A stretch of DNA of 64,000 nucleotides from Vampirovibrionaceae bacterium NZW_1234 (GTDB lineage Bacteria; Cyanobacteriota; Vampirovibrionia; Vampirovibrionales; JAGQHJ01): positions 32,001 to 96,000 of the forward strand of contig JBGUGD010000025.1 in the NCBI GenBank assembly GCA_041697335.1. Reading direction: 5' to 3'. Shown piece after piece: positions 525 through 52,100 of the stretch (position 1 is the first letter of the stretch; each line of letters starts with the position of its first letter). Under the pieces are notes generated by a model, which searched no databases, was not told the DNA's origin, and saw only the letters and a list, made by a program, of their open reading frames with translations. A program made the position numbers and the translations under genes.

Positions 525-2129
525 CTAGGCTGAAGCTTGAGGCTGGGGCTCAAGAGCCTTTTTAAATGCCGAAATCTCAGTATCATCGGCATTGGTTCCA
601 AAGTTCAGCTCAGCAGCAGGCAGGGCTTTGGCAATCGCTTCCATCGTCGCCACCTTCAGGCGGGTCGGTTGAAGGCCGGGCTCCGGCAGATCCTTCCGGG
701 TGAGCACATGATCGATTGGTTTGCCCTGTTCAAAGTCATCAATGTCGGCTTGTGTGGCCAGCTTCAAGAATTGCTGGATGCGCAGGGCCACTGCATAGTC
801 GACGCAATCCTGAAGATCAGTTGCATTTTTGCCTTTCAGGGCTTGCCCTTTTTCTTCCAGATAGGTTTGAAGTTCCTCGGCCTGTAAAATGCCATCATTT
901 CTGCCGGTTTTATCGGTGGCTTTGGCCACGTTGCCATAGAGTTCCGGAGTGGCCCGCAGGCTAACCCGCTTTGTGGTAGCCGGTAAATCCTGGGGCAGCT
1001 GAATCTGGGCAAACGATTTGGTCGGACCGGGGGCTTCCGATGCTGCGGAATTCAGCGTGACGTCGGAGGAATTAATGGAAAAAACCTGGCTGGCATCGCC
1101 GGAGGTGGGTAAGCCAATCAACACCGGTTCTGTGGGGCCGGTGGCACTGGTGCTTTCAATAATAATGGTATTGCCATTTTGCTGGATTACAGGGGCTTGT
1201 GCGAAAGCGGCAAGAAGGGATTGGCCATCATTATGGAGCGAAGGCGCATCGGTTTGGATCGTGGATGCCGTTCCGCCGCCAATCTGACTGGTAATGTGGA
1301 AGGTGCCATTGGGGCCTGTTACGCTGGGTGCGCCAACGAAGACCACATTGTTGCCGCCTTGCTCCGCAGCCGGTCCCGACGCTCCGGATACTCCGCTATT
1401 GCCATTATTGCCGGCGTCGTCCTTCGGGCCGGTAGTACCTGTGGCTTTACCTTTGCCCTGTTGTTTTTCACAATGCGGTAATTCGTGATTCAGAATCAAA
1501 TCCAGGAATACACTGCCCAATTCGTCGTCATAGGAGCCGTCCTGGGCCAGATTGATAATCAATTCCTCCAAATCGGGTTTCTTAAACTCCTGGCCCGGAT
1601 ACTTCAACACGAAGTTATCGTTCTTTTTCGACTCTTCGTCGATATGAATAATCAATTCCAGGGCCGCAGCGGCGGCTTTTTTCAACGTCGCACTATCGAG
1701 TTTTTTGTCTTTGTCAAACTGTTTCAGCTTTTGCTCCAGCTTGACTTGGGTAAAATCATACTCGTCACCTTCCGGCGAGGTGAACCGATAGCTTCGCTCT
1801 GCTTCAGCGCTGGGCTTGCCCTTGGCCTTCTCTGTGCCTTTGGCGCCTTTGGCATTGGCTTTCTTGTCGTCTTCTCCGCTGCCACCAAACAGGCTCATAA
1901 TCCAACGGAAGGGTGCGGTAATCATGGACCATAATTTTGTCAGAAACGTTTCTTCTTCTTTTTTCTTGCCTTTGCCTTTGGATGCCGGGGTTTCGGTTTC
2001 CGAACCAAAGCGTGGCGCTATGACATCGCGGGCCTGGGCCATCCGGAGACCACCCGGTACGGATGATGCGGTGCGCTTAAAATTTCCGGAAACGATGTTG
2101 GTATTGGCAAAACCAGTTCTCAGGTCCAT
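525..2129 (-). CDS. hypothetical protein; N-terminal part paralogous to 2284..3024
   Basis: 534-aa ORF, AAAGGA RBS; shares MDLRTGF, RFGSE, (A/T)PFRW and LIINLA with its neighbour. Confidence 0.85.
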   Translation of the reverse strand: MDLRTGFANTNIVSGNFKRTASSVPGGLRMAQARDVIAPRFGSETETPASKGKGKKKEEETFLTKLWSMITAPFRWIMSLFGGSGEDDKKANAKGAKGTEKAKGKPSAEAERSYRFTSPEGDEYDFTQVKLEQKLKQFDKDKKLDSATLKKAAAAALELIIHIDEESKKNDNFVLKYPGQEFKKPDLEELIINLAQDGSYDDELGSVFLDLILNHELPHCEKQQGKGKATGTTGPKDDAGNNGNSGVSGASGPAAEQGGNNVVFVGAPSVTGPNGTFHITSQIGGGTASTIQTDAPSLHNDGQSLLAAFAQAPVIQQNGNTIIIESTSATGPTEPVLIGLPTSGDASQVFSINSSDVTLNSAASEAPGPTKSFAQIQLPQDLPATTKRVSLRATPELYGNVAKATDKTGRNDGILQAEELQTYLEEKGQALKGKNATDLQDCVDYAVALRIQQFLKLATQADIDDFEQGKPIDHVLTRKDLPEPGLQPTRLKVATMEAIAKALPAAELNFGTNADDTEISAFKKALEPQPQASA

Positions 2130-2283: not shown

Positions 2284-3024
2284 CTATTCGTCAGCGCTTT
2301 TCGAGTCATCAACGTCCAGTTCCAGCGATTTCTGGTATGGAATTTCGTCTTTGATGAGGATGTCCAGAAATTCCAGGACTTTCGCCTTATCGCGTTTTGC
2401 CTCAGGTCGTGCCAAATTAATAATGAGCCCATTCAGCAGTTTGGTGGGCTTGGTCTTTTCAGCGCCGAAATTCACCACCTCTTTGCCCTGTTTAAGGGCA
2501 TCACTTGTCCCTTGTATCAGGCCCAGCGCATAATTGGCTGCTTCGGTAAAGACCTTTTTGCCGTTGGCTTCCCGGAATTTCTCTCGCTCGGCCCGATTGC
2601 CGACAGCCTGCATGAAGATTTTCCGGACCTGATCAAAATGAAACACCAGCGAGCGCTTTTTCCGGGTAATATACGTGGCTGGCGGATTTTCTTCTTCAAC
2701 GGTGATGTCCGTTTTCTTGGCTTTTTTGGCGCCTGCAGCCCCCTCGGCTTTTCCGAAGAAGGCGTCTTTTAGCTTGGCAAGCCAACGGAAGGGGGTGGCC
2801 AGGTAGTACAGAAGCGTTGCAAAAAAGCCCCGGGGCTTATCTTCGGCAGGCGTCGCGTCCTTCGATGTCTTTTTGGAGGGGGCGGCCTTGTCGGTTTTTT
2901 TCTCCGAGCCAAAGCGAATGTCACTCACATCTTGGGCATTGGCCGTTCTCAGAACCGGCCCGGCTTTCTGTTGTGGGGCAACACCACCGGAAAATGCAGG
3001 GTTAAATCCAGTTCTCAAATCCAT
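2284..3024 (-). CDS. hypothetical protein, paralog of 525..2129
   Basis: 246-aa ORF, AAGGAAG RBS, shared motifs. Confidence 0.85.
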   Translation of the reverse strand: MDLRTGFNPAFSGGVAPQQKAGPVLRTANAQDVSDIRFGSEKKTDKAAPSKKTSKDATPAEDKPRGFFATLLYYLATPFRWLAKLKDAFFGKAEGAAGAKKAKKTDITVEEENPPATYITRKKRSLVFHFDQVRKIFMQAVGNRAEREKFREANGKKVFTEAANYALGLIQGTSDALKQGKEVVNFGAEKTKPTKLLNGLIINLARPEAKRDKAKVLEFLDILIKDEIPYQKSLELDVDDSKSADE

Positions 3025-3978: not shown

Positions 3979-5232
3979 CTAGACGTTCACGGTCCCCCTG
4001 TTCCGAGATTGAAACGGGTTGTCCTGACCCGAGGCGGGGTTCTTGGCGATGAAACTTCCCCCGAAACAGGTATCCAGGATCATCAGGGTCCGATTGTCGA
4101 AATTCTTGAAATGCGTGCCAATCAAGTCTTTCAGGCTGTGCTCATGAAGCATCTGATCCTTTGTTTTATCGGTCGGATGCGCCAACTGCAATGTGCCGCG
4201 ATGCATGCCTTCCGGGTCATCCCGATCCACGGCGTTATAGGATTTTGATCGTGAGACGGCATCCGTGGCATTGGGATTCTTCAGAGTCTCGTTCTTGGGA
4301 TCCAGAAACCCATGCCCGGAATAATAAATCATGGCCGCCGGGTTCTGGGCTGCATTGGTCTTGCCGAATTGTTCCATCTTGGCCATGGCCGCTTTCACTT
4401 CATCCGGGTTGGTTGCCACATGGATGTCGCTTTCCTTGAGGCCGTAATCTTTTATAAGTCGTTCTTTCATGGCGGCCAGATCCGTATCGGCGGCTTTATG
4501 CCCACTGCCTTTGATGAGTAAGGCGGTTTTCGGATTCTTATCGCTTTTTTTCCAGCCGTCGATTCCTTGATACTCCGAACTCACGGGCAGGGGTTTACGA
4601 GAGCCACCCTCGCCGCCGACTTTACTGCTGGCCTCGTCCAGACGCTTTTGGGCCGGTGCCGTGATGGCATCGCGTTTTTTCGACCAGTTGTCCCGCAGGT
4701 CCTGTTCCGGTTTGATGTCCAGCGCCTGCATCTCTTTCACCTGGGCAATCTGCCGATCCAGCTCGGCAACATCCTTAAGCCGCTTATCCTTTTCGGCTTC
4801 GGCCCGCCGTTGTTGCAACGATTTCAGCGACGGGGCATATTTTTCGGAGGTTTTGTCAATCTTCCTTTCAGCCTCATGAACCCCGGCATCGGCCTCTTTG
4901 TAGGCAGGTGTCCGCTTTACATTGTTGAGGGCTCTGCTGGCTTCGCGCTCTTGGTGGTTGTTATTCCAGGTTTCCTGCTCAAACCGATCATGGGCTTGTT
5001 GAAAGGAATCGCTCTCATTCAAGCCTTTTAAGAGTTGCTCCGTATAAAACCCGCCTTTATAGGGTGCTTTGGAGTTTAAATACCGGCTGTCGTAAGTTTC
5101 CTGTCCCTGGCGACCTGCGGAAAGAACAGCCATCCGAATGGGATAGGGTTTGTCCGGATCAGTGGTCGCACGCGTGTATCCCGAAGGTGCTTTCGCACGT
5201 TTCACATCTGACATAGCCTTGTCTCTCATCAT
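3979..5232 (-). CDS. caspase-family (C14-like) protease, apparently circularly permuted
   Basis: IYYSGHG and ILDTCFGG His-Cys dyad motifs; coiled-coil middle. Confidence 0.8.
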   Translation of the reverse strand: MMRDKAMSDVKRAKAPSGYTRATTDPDKPYPIRMAVLSAGRQGQETYDSRYLNSKAPYKGGFYTEQLLKGLNESDSFQQAHDRFEQETWNNNHQEREASRALNNVKRTPAYKEADAGVHEAERKIDKTSEKYAPSLKSLQQRRAEAEKDKRLKDVAELDRQIAQVKEMQALDIKPEQDLRDNWSKKRDAITAPAQKRLDEASSKVGGEGGSRKPLPVSSEYQGIDGWKKSDKNPKTALLIKGSGHKAADTDLAAMKERLIKDYGLKESDIHVATNPDEVKAAMAKMEQFGKTNAAQNPAAMIYYSGHGFLDPKNETLKNPNATDAVSRSKSYNAVDRDDPEGMHRGTLQLAHPTDKTKDQMLHEHSLKDLIGTHFKNFDNRTLMILDTCFGGSFIAKNPASGQDNPFQSRNRGTVNV

Positions 5233-5378: not shown

Positions 5379-6074
5379 CTAGTATTTCAGCCAAAGCGGA
5401 TCCCATTCCGGACGAGGGGTCCATACCGGACCATTGTACTGGTGAATGTATTGTCCCCCCCAGAAACCGTCGGTATCGGTGCGGGCATTGCGTTGGCTGG
5501 TGACTTGGCCGTTATGATACAGGTGAATCTGGACCCCCTTGCTTCGGCCATTCGCCCGAGCGGCATCCTTGGCCTTGCCGTCGGGATCGAGGACAACGAA
5601 CACCATATTCTTCGGCTTGGTGCCCCCGAACTTGTTGTCGACCCAATAAAACAAGACACCGCCATTGTAGAGCTTAACGCATTTGCCAGGGACCCCATTA
5701 AAGGTGGTTGAGCCATTGCACGAGAGCGTTTTGTATTGCGGCTGGACATCCGCCCCGGCCCGATTATCGATGACCGAGGTGGTATCCGGCCCCAAGGTGT
5801 TCATGTACTTGAGAATATCGTCCATGGTGGTATCGGCCGTGGGCTTGTGATGATTGCAATACTCCTCATAGGTCTGGCTCAGACTGGTGATGAACTCCCG
5901 GTAAACCGCCAGGCTACGGCCGCTCTGGCTGGATTCCATGACCTTGGGGATGGCAAACATGGCAACGATGCCGAGAATTCCAACGGCCATCAGCAGTTCC
6001 GTGAGAGTAAATCCGGGTCGGGAGGTCCTTTTACGGCGAGAAACAGAGCGAGAAAAAGAGAAAAGGGGTGTCAT
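5379..6074 (-). CDS. type IV pilin / type II secretion pseudopilin-like protein
   Basis: Basic leader then G|FTLTELLMAVGILGIVAMFAIP prepilin motif; GGAG RBS before ATG 6074. Confidence 0.9.
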   Translation of the reverse strand: MTPLFSFSRSVSRRKRTSRPGFTLTELLMAVGILGIVAMFAIPKVMESSQSGRSLAVYREFITSLSQTYEEYCNHHKPTADTTMDDILKYMNTLGPDTTSVIDNRAGADVQPQYKTLSCNGSTTFNGVPGKCVKLYNGGVLFYWVDNKFGGTKPKNMVFVVLDPDGKAKDAARANGRSKGVQIHLYHNGQVTSQRNARTDTDGFWGGQYIHQYNGPVWTPRPEWDPLWLKY

Positions 6075-6516
6075 GACCAAAGGTGTCTCCAAGGCGGGTT
6101 TCGTCCTGTCGTCATGCTTTCGGTTGGTGTTTCCGGAATCTTGATAATCTGCGAAGAACCTCCTCCAGATGCCTTGGATGACACCAAGGCAAAAAAAAAC
6201 CGTACCTTTTGGGATACGGCTACTACTTTCATTGGAAAACAAGAAAGGAGGAAGGAAAGAAGAAGAAGATTTGTATAACCACCTTCTTATACTTTAACTA
6301 TTCCCACCCCCAATATCCTCTAAACGGATTGTTTCAATAACGTTACAATCGGATCCGAAATTCCCGTGGGGGCGCATTTTGGTCTGGAGTTACTCCTTGA
6401 ATGTCACCCCGGCCTATGGGATACTTTTGCCGGGATCGGTTTCTGCAAGGCGACCCTGCCCCCGGAAATCCGATTCATCCCTGTTTAGGCTTTAAACACA
6501 TGAAGGAAGGGCGAGA

Positions 6517-43388: not shown

Positions 43389-43627
43389 AAGTCACCTCTC
43401 CTAACCTACTTTTATTACCGAGAAAGACTCTAGATCAAACACACGTGGAAGTCGACCGAGGAGTTTTTATGATGCAATATCGGGCGATTTAATTATTTTT
43501 TCTGAGAGATCATGAAAAACATGGTCTATTTCTTAAGCTGACTTATTTAAATCTTAAGCGTATTTAAAAATCAAAAGCCCAGGTTTTTATCCTAGAAATG
43601 GCTGGACAGTACATTGGAGGGAAAGTT

Positions 43628-45481
43628 ATGGGCTGGTTTACGCATGGGTTCACAGGTTTGTCTGGAAATCAAGAACTGTGGGGCAACATAGCCACAAGCC
43701 GTGGGGAAGCCGACAAGAAAAAAAAGAAAGATAATACCTATTCGGCACGTCAGGACTATAAAAGCAATTCGGCCGTCAAATTATTGGAGTTGGATCACGA
43801 CATTGAAAAGTTGGCGCAGGCGTTGACGCAAAAAAAAGCATCCCAACAATCCATTGCCGAAGACTTTAATAAGACCGGTAAATTGCCGGAAGAAGTCAGA
43901 TGGGACGTTTTACGCGAGATTCTCAATGATCCGCAGGTCAAGGCGAAAACCGACGCGATGATGAAATTGGAATCGGAACTGGACACCAGTAATCAAGAAA
44001 AATTTACCGCCACATACCAAGCCGAGCTATGGGAAAAATTGGTGAAAGAAAAAAAGGATCAGCCCTTAGACCAGATTTTAAAGGGGTTTCTGGAAGAAAA
44101 ACGACAAATACAAGCGGAAGCGCCCAAGCGGCGAGAAGCCCTGGAGTTGGCTAACGTGAATTACGCCAAGGCACAGAAAGAATTTGAAGCCGCCCGAAAT
44201 GCCATCCCTGGAGACGAATGGTTCAATAACCCCGAGCGTGCGCGTGAAAAAATAAAGCCTCAGTCTGAGAAGTTAAGTGAGGCCACACGGGATCGGACTA
44301 TGGCGCAACGTGCAGTCATTGGTTCTGGGCTAAGAAAGACAGCCATTGAACGTGTGGAAAAAGAGTTTGCCGGTCGGGTTCTAAATGCTCCTGCCGACCA
44401 GAAACGTGAGCGTATTCAAGCTGTGCAAGACGGTTTTGCTTTAGAAATAGAACAAAAAGAGAAACAAACGCAGAAGATCTCTGACGCCCTTCAAGCCCAA
44501 TATAAAGCGTTTGACGAGTTCCAGGCTCAACGCATGAAAATTATTCGTAAATTGGATAAAAATGAAGCGCTGACACCGGAGGAACGAGCTTTTACAAAGC
44601 CATTTCTGGAATCGTATTTCCCCAAAAATATACAGGGGTTAGAAAAAGAAAAGCGATTTTTGACCGAGGCCAAGGGCTGGGTCAAAGACGGCAAAATCAA
44701 CGATTTACGCTTAAATGCCGATAAGCCCAAACAAGCCTGGCCGAAGAATTTTGCCGTGGCGACGGCCACCGGCCAGCGTCATATGGCTTGGGGAGGTTTA
44801 TATATGGATTCGGTTTTCAACCATTTGAAAACGGAAAAGAGTCTTCCGGCTGCCATTCGAAAAACAGAGCAGGCCAATAGTATCATCCATGATGTTGAAC
44901 GCAACGGCACGCCCCAGGGCAAAGCCTATCAGGTTCCCGTGTCCTCTACACGTCCAATAGAGGGGTGGAAGGTTTTTGGAGAAGAGAAAACACTGCCCCC
45001 GAGAAAGATACTCTATATTCAAGGGGGTACCAATCCCAATGAAGATCCGGCACGATTCAATCGGGAATATGCGGCCTTCGACAGAAATATCCGACATCAC
45101 TTCGGTCCTGCCGTGGAAATCCTTCGAGTCAAAGAACCCACGTTCAAGCAAGTGGATGAGGCAATAGAATTCCTGGCAAAAACCAGCGATGACAAAACCG
45201 AGGTCATGATTTTCATGTCCGGTCATGGCAGTGCTTCAGGCTTAGAGGAAGGGCTCACAGAAGAAGACAAGCTCAAAGAAGGCAGCCAAATCGGTTCATT
45301 TATGCTGAAAGGCCCAAGTAAGGACAACCCCAATGGCGAATTCCTGAGTGAGACTCACCTGAAGCAGCTGACCCAAAAACTGGCTCACTGTAAATCCGGG
45401 TTAATAATGATCGACAGCTGTCACTCCGGGGCCTGGATTGCAAAAGACACACCGAGAAAAACCACTGTACAGCCTACGTAA
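43628..45481 (+). CDS. caspase-family (C14-like) protease with N-terminal coiled coil, apparently permuted
   Basis: IFMSGHG and MIDSCHSG dyad motifs; GGAGGG RBS. Confidence 0.8.
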   Translation: MGWFTHGFTGLSGNQELWGNIATSRGEADKKKKKDNTYSARQDYKSNSAVKLLELDHDIEKLAQALTQKKASQQSIAEDFNKTGKLPEEVRWDVLREILNDPQVKAKTDAMMKLESELDTSNQEKFTATYQAELWEKLVKEKKDQPLDQILKGFLEEKRQIQAEAPKRREALELANVNYAKAQKEFEAARNAIPGDEWFNNPERAREKIKPQSEKLSEATRDRTMAQRAVIGSGLRKTAIERVEKEFAGRVLNAPADQKRERIQAVQDGFALEIEQKEKQTQKISDALQAQYKAFDEFQAQRMKIIRKLDKNEALTPEERAFTKPFLESYFPKNIQGLEKEKRFLTEAKGWVKDGKINDLRLNADKPKQAWPKNFAVATATGQRHMAWGGLYMDSVFNHLKTEKSLPAAIRKTEQANSIIHDVERNGTPQGKAYQVPVSSTRPIEGWKVFGEEKTLPPRKILYIQGGTNPNEDPARFNREYAAFDRNIRHHFGPAVEILRVKEPTFKQVDEAIEFLAKTSDDKTEVMIFMSGHGSASGLEEGLTEEDKLKEGSQIGSFMLKGPSKDNPNGEFLSETHLKQLTQKLAHCKSGLIMIDSCHSGAWIAKDTPRKTTVQPT

Positions 45482-47324: not shown

Positions 47325-48458
47325 ATGACCATGAATCCGTTATTTTCGTACGGCTCAATGTCTCCCGGTAGCTATGGCTACGGTGGCGGAGGCTATGGTG
47401 TCCCTACCACAGGTTTATTACCCCCCATTGTTTTACCCCCGTCGTTTGCACTAGGCAAACCTACTGGCGTGTCTTACTCTGGTGGCTTTGGCGATCCCTT
47501 CGGGGGAGCTTTCCTGGGTGGATTTACCGGTGGTCTGTTAGGCAGCGGTTTTCCCATCGCGCCCAAACCGGAGCCCTATTATTCCTATCCAACGAAGATG
47601 CCGGGTTACGGTCAACAGTCCCAGACGCAATTCATGCAATTATTCCTGGTACTTCTGTTAACCCAGCTCCTGGGCGGTAAGATTGGTGGGCCAAGACCAG
47701 TGCCCGTACCGACACCAACTCCGGTACCCGTACCCACACCGACCCCGGTTCCCGTACCAACGCCGACTCCGGTCCCGGTACCGACACCGACCCCGGTGCC
47801 TGTACCCACACCCACGCCGGTACCTGTACCTGTGCCGACACCAACTCCAGTGCCCGTACCGACTCCAACGCCGGTACCTGTGCCGGTGCCGACGCCTACT
47901 CCGGTGCCTGTTCCTACTCCCACGCCGGTACCTGTGCCCGTGCCGACCCCAACCCCGGTGCCGACTCCATCTCCAACACCGAGTCCGACACCAACGCCAG
48001 CTCCAACCCCGACACCCGTTCCTACGCCAAGTCCGGTTCCCGTGCCGACGCCCCCGCCACCACCGCCTTATCCAACGCCGGTCCCCGTACCGACACCTCC
48101 GCCGGTGCCGCCGATTCCATCGCCACCGCCATTACCGACGCCGGTCCCTGTGCCGACGCCACCACCGGTGCCGCCGATTCCGTCACCACCACCATTACCA
48201 TCGCCGGTTCCTGTGCCGACGCCTCCGCCGGTGCCCCCGATTCCATCGCCACCGCCGTTACCGACGCCGGTTCCTGTACCGACGCCTCCGCCGGTGCCCC
48301 CGATCCCATCGCCACCGCCATTACCGTCGCCGGTTCCTGTGCCGACGCCGCCACCCATTCCACCGATTCCGTCGCCGCCGCATCCGCACCCACATGTGCC
48401 GATTCCGACGCCGCCCCCGGTACCACCCATTCCATCCCCCCCTCCTTTCCATAAATAA
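47325..48458 (+). CDS. Pro/Thr/Val-rich repeat protein
   Basis: Gly-rich N-terminus, hydrophobic helix, then PVPVPTPT and [19 protein letters not shown] repeats with varied third codon positions. Confidence 0.85.
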
Positions 48459-49125: not shown

Positions 49126-52100
49126 TTATTTCAACTCAACAATGGTGAGATTCAAGTCCATGTATGAGCGGTCGCCGAAGGTTGGCACGTCATTAATGTC
49201 CCAGCCTTTTAAGAAATAACCTTCACCAGCTTTGTGAGGGGCTTGTCCCGTCCCAAAGCCTTTATCCAGGCTAACCCAGCGAACTGCTTTTCCATTGGCA
49301 TCGCGAATGGCAACTGCCTTATGGCCTTTACCTACGCTACGGGTCATCGTTCTATCAATACTCCAGCCTCGAGAAATAAAATAGGGTTCTAAATCCTCGA
49401 GCTTCTTCGGCAAGTGATCTGCAAGTCTGCTTTCCATTTTTGCTTTGGCGGTTGCCAAGTCCGTTCCAGGCTCAAACTCCACAGGCTCATAGGCCGATGG
49501 ATGCTTGGCCTGTTCCATGGCTTTGGAGGCTTTGGCATTGAGATATACTTTATAAATGGGTGGCTTGCCGCCAGGTTGCGGGATTTCGATAAGAATACCG
49601 CCACCGTTACATGTATCCACTACTTTACCTCCTAAAGCCTCGGCCAGCTCTTCTTTTGTATAGTTTTCAGATAATTTGCCAGACTTTTGCAGGTTTTTGT
49701 AAAGCCCTTCAGGCTTTTTCAAAAATTCGATACGCTCCTTGTGCTTTTCGGTAAATTTCTCATACCGTTCATACGCTGTTTTAACCTGTTTGTTAGCCTG
49801 GATTACTTTGGTCTGGAGTGTTTTATCTCCAGGGGTTTTGTTCAGGTCTTCAAGAGCTTTTACTCGTTGCTGCTCGGCATCCTTGATGTCTTTCAGGATA
49901 CTGTTAGCATCCTTCGACAAATCAGCTAAGGCCGGGTCGGTAAGGACCTTCTCTACCGCTGCAGTGCGACCATTCTGAGCCTCTTTGATTTCGGGGATAA
50001 TTTCATCTCGAATCATTTCCAATTCATTTATTCTGTCTGTATTGGGTTTCGGCTTACTTTTTTCGGCTTCAATCAGCTCGTTTAATCGGGAGACGGTAGC
50101 CATTTTTTCCTGAACAATGGCCTCACTTTCCATATATGAATCCCGATAAGCTTTGGCGGCTTGGTCGTATTCCATGTGCGCCTTATCAACCTTACGTTGG
50201 GCTGCTTCAATGGCCTCAAAATCAGTTCCTTCCAAAGCCTTTTCCAAAGCGGCCTCCGCTTCTTGGAGCTCTTTTGCCTTGGATGCCACATCGTTTTGCA
50301 ACTTCGCCGATTCATTCACACGGGCTTGGGCCTTTTCATCCTTCAGCTTAAAGGCCCGATAATGATCGGGAACGTGGCCATTTTCATGAAAGCCGTCATG
50401 AATGCGTACCTTGCCGTTGGCTTCACGAGGCAATTTAATAACAGTTGTCGCTTTTCCAGTAGCATCCACCGTGGTTTCAATCGAGGGGTGCTGTAACCCA
50501 TCAACTGCCTCATATTTTACATTGTCCAAATAACTGTCCGGAATCCCTTCTTTGCGCAACTGGTCTTTGAGCTGGCTTTTTAGAGGTTCCAGCAAGGCCG
50601 GGTCTGTTATTTCGCCGGGCTTGACGTCATGCCACAATTCATCGGCAAGATCTGCCGCTTCCTCATTGGGACGGATTTTATTGGTCGACATCGTTTGAGG
50701 TTCTGAGACGGAAGGCTTGTATCCTTTGGCAGCCGGGTCAACCATGGATACTTGGCGGTTCAGGGCAGGATCCATAATGACCTTGCCATTGGGGGTGTCT
50801 ACTTCCAACCATGTGTGGGGTTTCATCTTACCATCCACCAGGGCTTTACCTTTCACCAGTGTCGACTTGATTCCAGCCTGGTCCAACATGGCTTTGGTCA
50901 ACATGGCTTTGTGATGAGGTGATCCGGATTTTGCGTCCATGAATTCACCCAAGCCTACTTTTTGTCCGGCTTTGGCCTTACCCATTGCATCGGCCTTGGT
51001 GGATTCCGGCATGTACTCGTTTACCTTGTCCATAATGGCTTTGGTCTTCTGAGCGTCCGTTAATGCCGGATTGTTTTTTACGTTTTCCGCATAATCCAGT
51101 GCTTCTTTCACCTTGGGATGATTTGGATCAAAGGTTGTGGTTTCCCGTTCTTTAAGTCGTACGGGAGCATCTTCAAAGCCTTTTTCCAAGGGTGCTTCCA
51201 TGCGTTGTTCCAGCTTGAACAGTTCCGCCTGGCTAGGCTTGGGTGCCCCGTTGGCAATAGCTTTTTGCCGCACCAACTTAGGCAGATGTGCGACCTGTTC
51301 GGGCGTCATCTTGGCAAAGTTCTCTTTGGGCATCTCCATCCAAACTTCCGTTGGAATTTTGGCGACGGCCTCCGGCTTCAGATTGGCAAAGGCTTCGGGT
51401 GAAATTTCCTTGGCCACTTCCGGCGTGAGCTTGCGGGCACTGCCTGGCGTCACGGTTTTGGCGGTTTCCGGTGTCAAGGCTTTGGCCGCCTCTGGTGTCA
51501 ATCGAGGATTTGCCTTGGCATCATACAGCTTGTATCCAAGCTTGCCAGCGCCTTTATAGGTTTTACCCATGCTCTTCGCCAGTCCGGCTCCCATTTTAAT
51601 GTCAATAATGCCGTCGGCCGCCTTGCTGAGAGAACGGTCAAATTTCTCCTGGTCCCCATCCCGGATGGCTTCCAACATGCCAATGATGCCTTCATAAGCT
51701 TCTTCAAGGCCGCTCGATACCAGGTGATGTGCAGTCTTGACACCATGTACCGGGTTTAAGAAGCATTTCAGAATTTCTTTCGCCGTGCCTTCCGGGTCCA
51801 GAATAAACGGCGCGATGACTTTGGTCACAAAGCTCACTGCAATATTCTGGGCGGCTCTCGGAATCTGCTGAAGCTCTTTGGGCATGGGTTGCTGGTTCAG
51901 CCACTCTGTAAAATCATTAGCGCCAAGCATTTCCATCAGTCTCTGAACTTCTGGACTGTTTGTAGCATCCTTTGCTAAATCGCTCAGCCCCAGATCGGCT
52001 GCCCATTTGTCCAGCTTGGCATACATCTCATCCAGGATTTTTTGTTTTTCCGGATCGATTTTTAGCGGCGGTAACATTTCTTCCGGCGGTTTCATGCCCG

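Follow-up and report, generated by a model that had tools for sequence, protein, structure and literature searches.

The window analysed here, a stretch of 64,000 nucleotides from the genome of Vampirovibrionaceae bacterium NZW_1234, contains on its reverse strand a gene, P0001, whose product retains an intact His-Cys dyad of the caspase type and has the order of the two caspase parts permuted, an arrangement that it has in common with a large family of proteins. The features of this gene, and of a second family member lying in the same window, are listed below; counts out of 151 refer to the family alignment described later.

3979..5232, reverse strand: P0001 gene, encoding a circularly permuted C14 (caspase-family) protein of 417 residues (open reading frame, Pfam and structure model)
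5155..5232, reverse strand: residues 1-26, polar N-terminus, predicted to be disordered (sequence; pLDDT < 50 for residues 1-24)
4957..5154, reverse strand: residues 27-92, p10 (small-subunit) block relocated to the N-terminus (profiles, model)
4618..4956, reverse strand: residues 93-205, long helical insertion within p10, predicted to be a coiled coil (model, family alignment)
4573..4617, reverse strand: residues 206-220, linker and last p10 element, KPLPVSS (family alignment with the Q-x-P motif)
4039..4572, reverse strand: residues 221-398, GW linker and p20 (large, catalytic) part (Pfam, PDB alignment, model)
4480..4482, reverse strand: Asp251, aligned with the 'ND' Asp of AtMC9 (alignment)
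4312..4314, reverse strand: catalytic His307 in YYSGHG (sequence; His in 144/151)
4072..4074, reverse strand: Asp387, putative S1 partner of Asp251 (sequence alignment)
4066..4068, reverse strand: catalytic Cys389 in ILDTCFGG, 28 residues before the end (sequence; Cys in 149/151)
3982..4038, reverse strand: residues 399-417, short tail, predicted to be disordered (model)
43598..45481, forward strand: second member of the permuted family, 627 residues (profile search)

The Pfam profile Peptidase_C14 recognizes only residues 246-390 of P0001, equivalent to positions 20-128 of its 233, with 23 bits against a cut-off of 21.4; because this match ends with the Cys region, the p10 half is absent after the Cys. 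The first-pass annotation of this DNA, which had pointed out that the short distance between Cys and stop leaves no room for a small subunit, was right in this respect, and all the motifs it quoted are present. Where Logan contigs from four runs of one sample, possibly the source sample, cover the gene, they agree with its sequence letter by letter and reveal neither indels nor joints, although no single piece covers it whole. The second member in the window has a long helical N-terminus of about 370 residues followed by a contiguous p10-p20 core, with 19 residues past the Cys. Directly upstream of P0001, on the same strand, lies a type IV pilin-like gene with an N-methylation motif (5379-6242), which does not recur as a neighbour across the loci that were compared. 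Elsewhere the window encodes a helical protein of 2037 residues with a distinct C-terminal tip (49126-55239, reverse strand) and a Pro-rich repeat protein of 377 residues (47325-48458, forward strand). A promoter scan remained at chance level, with one found and 1.1 expected. The data sets containing this DNA are hot-spring and microbial-mat metagenomes, possibly a single data set, and no RNA data sets are listed among them. The host is likely to be a non-photosynthetic relative of cyanobacteria, in the class Vampirovibrionia (Melainabacteria): its best 16S matches are to cyanobacteria, at 81%, and no photosystem II reaction-centre genes were found in this genome or in two members of the class, whereas a genome of the same phylum has seven.

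The p10 block of P0001 comprises a strand at residues 34-38, the conserved Gln42, a GGFYT helix at 62-71 and the beginning of the next helix; the Gln is present in 136 of the 151 members, and the column of Tyr63 holds Tyr or Phe in 121. An independent reference for p10 was taken from the post-Cys segments of 25 C14 domains that have the ordinary order and belong to relatives within the class. The HMM of these segments, run over the full P0001 reading frame, matches at residues 36-90, and on residues 1-100 it scores 11.7 bits, a value that none of 2000 shuffles reaches (maximum 8.1). When P0001 alone is compared with the ordinary p10 alignment by HHalign, the match is weak (E 0.0056, probability 6.5%), and for this reason the p10 identification rests on the family and on the model. 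At the family level, 31 N-terminal blocks align with 18 ordinary p10 segments with a HHalign probability of 93.9% and an E value of 1.6e-7, over 69 columns that take in the p10 strand, its two helices and the Q-x-P at its end. In the reverse test, the profile of the permuted p10 matched after the Cys in all 24 ordinary domains in which it matched, out of 25 tested, while in one paralog residues 40-89 match positions 155-210 of the Pfam C14 profile (E 0.0018). Other results speak against the identification: just 2 of the 31 permuted p10 segments match Pfam C14, the ordinary p10 HMM reaches 5 bits or more in only 18 of the 151 members (in 17 of these within the N-terminal block), and a search of PDB sequences with a p10-only profile brought up noise of the TolC type but not a single caspase.

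The PVSS region (residues 213-220) corresponds, in the family alignment, to the Q-x-P with which ordinary p10 ends, and its Pro216 column is kept in 132 of 151 members; it follows that the coiled coil, at about residues 93-205, sits inside p10. The initial reading of the protein as p10, coiled coil, PVSS and p20 thus holds for the order in the sequence, with the refinement that PVSS is the last p10 element and not a linker. The residues between profile columns 60 and 80 number 137 in P0001 against 58 at most in the other 150 members, so that a coiled coil of about 113 residues inside p10 is found in P0001 only among the 151 aligned sequences; a homologue of this insert was sought in this genome and in the family set, and none was found.

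Structure models, which are predictions from alignments built in this analysis, give a concordant picture. The AlphaFold2 model of P0001 has a pLDDT of 82 and a pTM of 0.78, and its best match among 48,161 chains is the engineered, circularly permuted caspase-2, cpCasp2 (8vp4_A; Z 15.9, rmsd 3.4, 196 residues, spanning 27-390 of the model), whereas Yca1, of native order, matches the p20 part only (232-398, Z 9.9). In the Foldseek ranking for this model, plant metacaspase 9 comes out on top (E 9e-4), and cpCasp2, in seventh place, aligns over a greater length. For a compact member lacking the insert, modelled with pLDDT 92 and pTM 0.92, cpCasp2 again leads (Z 17.4, rmsd 3.6, 198 aligned residues; the next chain has 10.5), and the first four Foldseek ranks are all cpCasp2 (E 1e-6 to 9e-6), at an identity between cpCasp2 and the permuted family of 6-13%. 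The N-terminal block is thus predicted to complete the caspase sheet, producing a full caspase domain inclusive of the p10 strands and helices. The first-pass annotation had called the N-terminal segment p10-like and had proposed to check it by split HMM alignment and structure prediction: the former aligns the block to p10 at the family level, and the latter predicts a fold that the segment completes.

How widespread is this arrangement? In a library search, 137 proteins reached E <= 1e-30 and 605 reached 1e-10; among the best 150 matches, which include at least 16 of our own seeds and come from library entries without taxonomy, 143 span the permuted profile from position 25 or earlier to position 240 or later, as counted by eye. 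These 150 sequences and P0001 constitute the family alignment of 151 members, in which 3-51 residues follow the Cys column; the closest relative of P0001 among these aligned best matches is 31% identical. This genome alone has 11 permuted members, P0001 included, and in each of them the Cys lies within 7-31 residues of the end. Among 301 genomes of the class, 30 matched at E <= 1e-6 and were then sorted by domain order (one match in family f2 being a partial reading frame, and one match being sorted by eye): this genome and 22 others have the permuted form, whereas seven, of family f5, have the ordinary order only. The permuted form is present in 4/4 genomes of class family f1, 2/19 of f2, 8/25 of f3, 2/30 of f6 and 6/12 of f9, while none of the 99 genomes of f7 matched at the same threshold. 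It was not found in f5, where 19 of 23 genomes (for example G115 and G133) show a strong expansion of ordinary-order C14 domains, reaching as many as 21 in one genome. In a sample of 401 genomes of the phylum, five matched at E <= 1e-12, namely this genome, three f9 genomes and one with an ordinary-order protein outside the class. At that threshold the phylum of a Haliangium-titled genome gave one match in 251 genomes and that of a Planctomyces-titled genome five in 251, all of ordinary order, with ten candidates scored per genome in both phyla, a depth at which divergent permuted families could escape.

Other searches added little. Phage and plasmid collections searched with the compact member gave no match; in a word-indexed protein search with P0001, none of 5803 candidates obtained a score, and the search with an alignment yielded two matches, both already known; the ESM Atlas returned generic C14 clusters only, and the sole name found by cluster look-up of ten relatives was 'hypothetical protein'. 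A scan of the genome collection for the catalytic motifs produced 13 loci, 11 of which were chance matches. The two family members (L094 and L098) both lie in a genome, G597, labelled 'uncultured Gammaproteobacteria', the ValRS of which is 61% identical to that of this genome, compared with 59-61% for class members and 51% for the oxygenic cyanobacterium tested; the label is probably a mislabel, judging from these sequences. The protein leaders of G597 resemble those of this class, and none of 40 relatives of G597 matched in the search.

Could P0001 be simply a p20-only protein with a chance likeness to p10, or else a truncated or misassembled gene? The weak match of P0001 alone and the failure of the p10 profile to find a caspase among PDB sequences would fit this possibility, but it is largely refuted by the shuffles and the position test (24/24), by the structural matches to cpCasp2 and by the identical order in 143 of the best 150 library matches, and we deem it highly improbable. 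P0001 is almost certainly a caspase-family protein with p10 preceding p20, and profile comparison, structure models and family breadth agree with the original proposal of a naturally permuted C14 family.

With regard to catalysis, the columns of the metacaspase calcium site were mapped onto the 151 members by sequence, from an alignment with Yca1 and not from an algal enzyme. On this mapping, the PxD position has Asp in at most 7% of members, the DD pair has Glu in 89% and then Asp in 17%, and the position Cys+7 has Asp in 1%; the p10 loop contains no conserved Asp. Metacaspases of types I-III have eight calcium-binding Asp residues in common (PMC9626678), most of which appear, from this alignment, to have been lost in the permuted family. 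Metacaspases cleave after Arg or Lys by means of an acidic S1 pocket (PMC10235996). P0001 has both Asp251 and Asp387. We take these to be the acidic S1 positions, and P0001 would then probably cut after Arg or Lys; across the family the two columns hold Asp in only 36% and 62% of members, respectively, and therefore specificity may vary within it. A paralog in this genome has Glu in place of the catalytic His, in YYVGEG (L042 4638-5816, reverse strand, equal to C34:31637-32815). Glu occurs at this column in 5 of the 151 members, which may represent a pseudo-protease branch.

Ordinary caspases are cut upon activation just after the catalytic Cys loop. The chain ends of P0001 would fall right after this loop, at the activation cut site, and the protein would therefore be made in a processed-like form, acting as a single-chain, calcium-independent cysteine protease. 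Several precedents bear on this idea: cpCasp2 is a constitutively active single chain (PMC7760212); in the orthocaspase MaOC1 the p20 must be cut from the chain, no other activator being needed, and orthocaspases activate without calcium (PMC5756287). P0001 is likely to be an active protease, and it probably needs neither a linker cut nor calcium.

This evidence needs to be weighed against the algal type III metacaspases, such as GtMC2 and PtMCA-IIIc, which are p10-first and autoprocessing, yet require calcium and N-terminal removal (PMC5756287, PMC8455989), and against the type I metacaspases, which never undergo a cut that separates p20 from p10 (PMC5756287), so that the order alone is no proof of constitutive activity. 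The constitutive activity suggested by the first-pass annotation is plausible. P0001 might likewise be a regulated zymogen, silent until it binds calcium or loses its N-terminus or coiled coil; a cell with eleven such proteases would need to control them if they were constitutively active, and the 27 Lys/Arg among the 124 residues of the insert region are potential sites of self-cleavage. Against such regulation stand the lack of most calcium aspartates, the existence of two paralogs with almost no N-terminal extension and the consideration that excising the insert would split p10. We judge the zymogen alternative unlikely, and favour as the best overall explanation, with reasonable though not strong confidence, a permuted, single-chain, calcium-independent protease of Arg/Lys specificity that requires no cut in the linker. 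A different question is where such enzymes act. They could be effectors delivered to prey or host cells, with the coiled coil aiding translocation or target binding, considering that there are 11 copies with unrelated N-termini, that no neighbour is conserved around the 36 loci compared, and that V. chlorellavorus, a relative in culture, is a predator of Chlorella for which delivery of hydrolases has been predicted (PMC4451040). RFG motifs are also enriched near protein starts (170 within the first 70 residues against 47 and 46, among 2797 reading frames of this genome) and are carried by two of the 11 members, and this genome has a second, divergent flagellum-like export cluster (L107 8614-19451, reverse strand, contig C32). 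The cluster encodes a FliI/SctN-type ATPase, FliH, FliF-like and FliE proteins, a FlhA-like protein below the cut-off, a lytic transglycosylase and FlgC/B/G/F-like proteins, while canonical FlhA is encoded separately on contig C2; it could be a divergent secretion system, but nothing links it to the permuted-caspase genes. Moreover, a search of this genome (94.75% complete) for the VirB4 family (PF03135) gave no match, and P0001 itself has neither a hydrophobic signal segment nor an RFG-type motif in residues 1-26. An effector role is consequently possible for the family, if rather doubtful, and the suggestion made for P0001 at the outset is unsupported, its gene having no conserved neighbours either.

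Two adjacent proteins of no known family in the window (525-2129 and 2284-3024, reverse strand) both start with MDLRTGF and carry an RFGSE motif. The notion that the permuted proteases process RFG leaders was set aside, as P0001 itself has no such leader and there is nothing to connect the two. Among the 133 family members with N-terminal extensions of 40 residues or more, 54 have a hydrophobic segment, a raw count without control that leaves out 18 shorter members. No neighbour is common to more than two of the 36 loci; this makes a fixed operon for defence or signalling less likely, and a role of this kind was discarded. The members may form an accessory set of proteases, many of them possibly anchored to the membrane or exported, with varied N-termini and inserts that might aim or restrain the enzyme; in P0001, the coiled coil would likely bind a partner or substrate.

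In evolutionary terms, the question becomes whether the family shares its permutation with the algal enzymes. A quick tree of p20 sequences, comprising 43 permuted and 29 ordinary bacterial rows (six near-duplicate ordinary loci being left out), places all 43 permuted rows on one side of a branch with SH-aLRT 92, unstarred; this 72-row tree is unrooted, has long branches and contains bacterial sequences only. The permuted-p10 profile scores 8-37 bits on 21 orthocaspase-type domains, while three bacterial domains that are type I-like receive -0.7, -1.2 and -3.7 bits, so by sequence profile the p10 of the family is orthocaspase-like. The ancestor of the family would have been an orthocaspase-type gene that was permuted independently, within Vampirovibrionia or close to it. 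How such a switch can occur is shown by two short permuted paralogs in tandem (L001 850-1767 and 1771-2637, reverse strand; C34:176098-177885 in this genome) which, read through the stop between them, give an ordinary p20-p10 match to Pfam (E 7e-11): their halves are complementary, and duplication followed by trimming can thus change the order, at a date that this junction does not tell. A single event common to the family and the algal type III metacaspases, of which the bacterial proteins would be the sister or the source, would account for the identical p10-first order, for the best matches of the p20 half among PDB sequences, which are plant and fungal metacaspases (E 2.6e-12 to AtMC4), and for the conserved [EQ]G that recalls the metacaspase DG; the host also belongs, presumably, to the phylum of the plastid ancestor. 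Yet type III enzymes are described as derived from type I and as keeping eight calcium Asp residues (PMC3734836, PMC9626678), which are mostly missing here, and the p10 of the family is of the orthocaspase kind. For these two reasons we consider a separate origin likely, on a comparison made without algal sequences, and a common event distinctly improbable. We would regard as unlikely, if taken as a whole, the wider proposition of an independent family that is active as made, needs no calcium or processing and has expanded as delivered proteases with swappable arms, including a coiled coil grafted into p10.

As of 2013, p10-first type III enzymes were 'not detected in bacteria' (PMC3734836), and a later survey of 11,208 prokaryotic sequences reported 'no type III metacaspases' (PMC6426788); subsequent papers, in their available text, still place type III in phytoplankton (PMC8455989, PMC9820594, PMC10235996). 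In the literature, mostly that outside subscription papers, we found no account of bacterial C14 proteins forming a family with p10 first, and there the phrase 'circularly permuted' in conjunction with 'caspase-like' refers, where found, to other proteases. What is new is therefore the bacterial occurrence, the order itself being known from algae, and the family is a clear counter-example to the absence stated by the two surveys, as far as their available text goes. It is easily missed because Pfam recognizes just one half of the domain, and this weakly if at all. Its existence suggests that natural permutation of the caspase fold took place on more than one occasion, at the very place chosen by engineers, and provides natural single-chain enzymes in which one can ask if activation depends on nothing more than the break between p20 and p10. 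The family also offers possible new proteases for tag removal and points to an unannotated set of proteases in a poorly known, partly predatory lineage.

Among known systems, P0001 fits the definition of Peptidase C14 (a p20 with SGHG and D-x-C dyad motifs) and the working definition of type III, in which p10 ends before p20 starts (PMC6426788). It has in common with GtMC2 (or GtMCA-III) of Guillardia theta and PtMCA-IIIc of Phaeodactylum the p10-before-p20 order and the C-terminal His-Cys dyad (PMC3734836, PMC5756287, PMC8455989), and probably also the Arg/Lys pocket. Type III enzymes are nonetheless eukaryotic, from algae with secondary plastids, and dependent upon calcium through conserved Asp residues, whereas the family is bacterial and departs from the calcium-site definition (PMC9626678) on the Yca1-based mapping; they are described as type I-derived, while the p10 profile of the family scores below zero on the three type I-like domains and matches no PDB metacaspase; and the available text on them does not mention a coiled coil inside p10. 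The layout is thus that of a reverse caspase, or type III, while the sequence departs from type III in its calcium sites and in its kind of p10. With regard to the orthocaspases, exemplified by MaOC1 of Microcystis and the TPR-fused C14 proteins of loci L037 and L050, and to the type I-like GSU0716, both the p20 and the post-Cys segment are homologous, with the orthocaspase-type p10 being the closest to the permuted block by profile scores; in the ordinary-order relatives examined, the chain continues past the Cys for about 106 to 517 residues, in contrast to 3-51 in the permuted family. The family agrees with the definition of orthocaspases as prokaryotic p20 proteins without a metacaspase-type p10 but not with the catalytic part coming first and the rest being C-terminal. 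The engineered cpCasp2 (PDB 8vp4, 9c2y; PMC7760212) has equal topology and is the best structural match of both models, though man-made from animal caspases that are dimeric and Asp-specific, while the permuted family is natural and has a predicted acidic S1 pocket. The first-pass annotation invoked only engineered reversed caspases as precedent, whereas the p10-first type III metacaspases of algae are natural (PMC3734836, PMC8455989).
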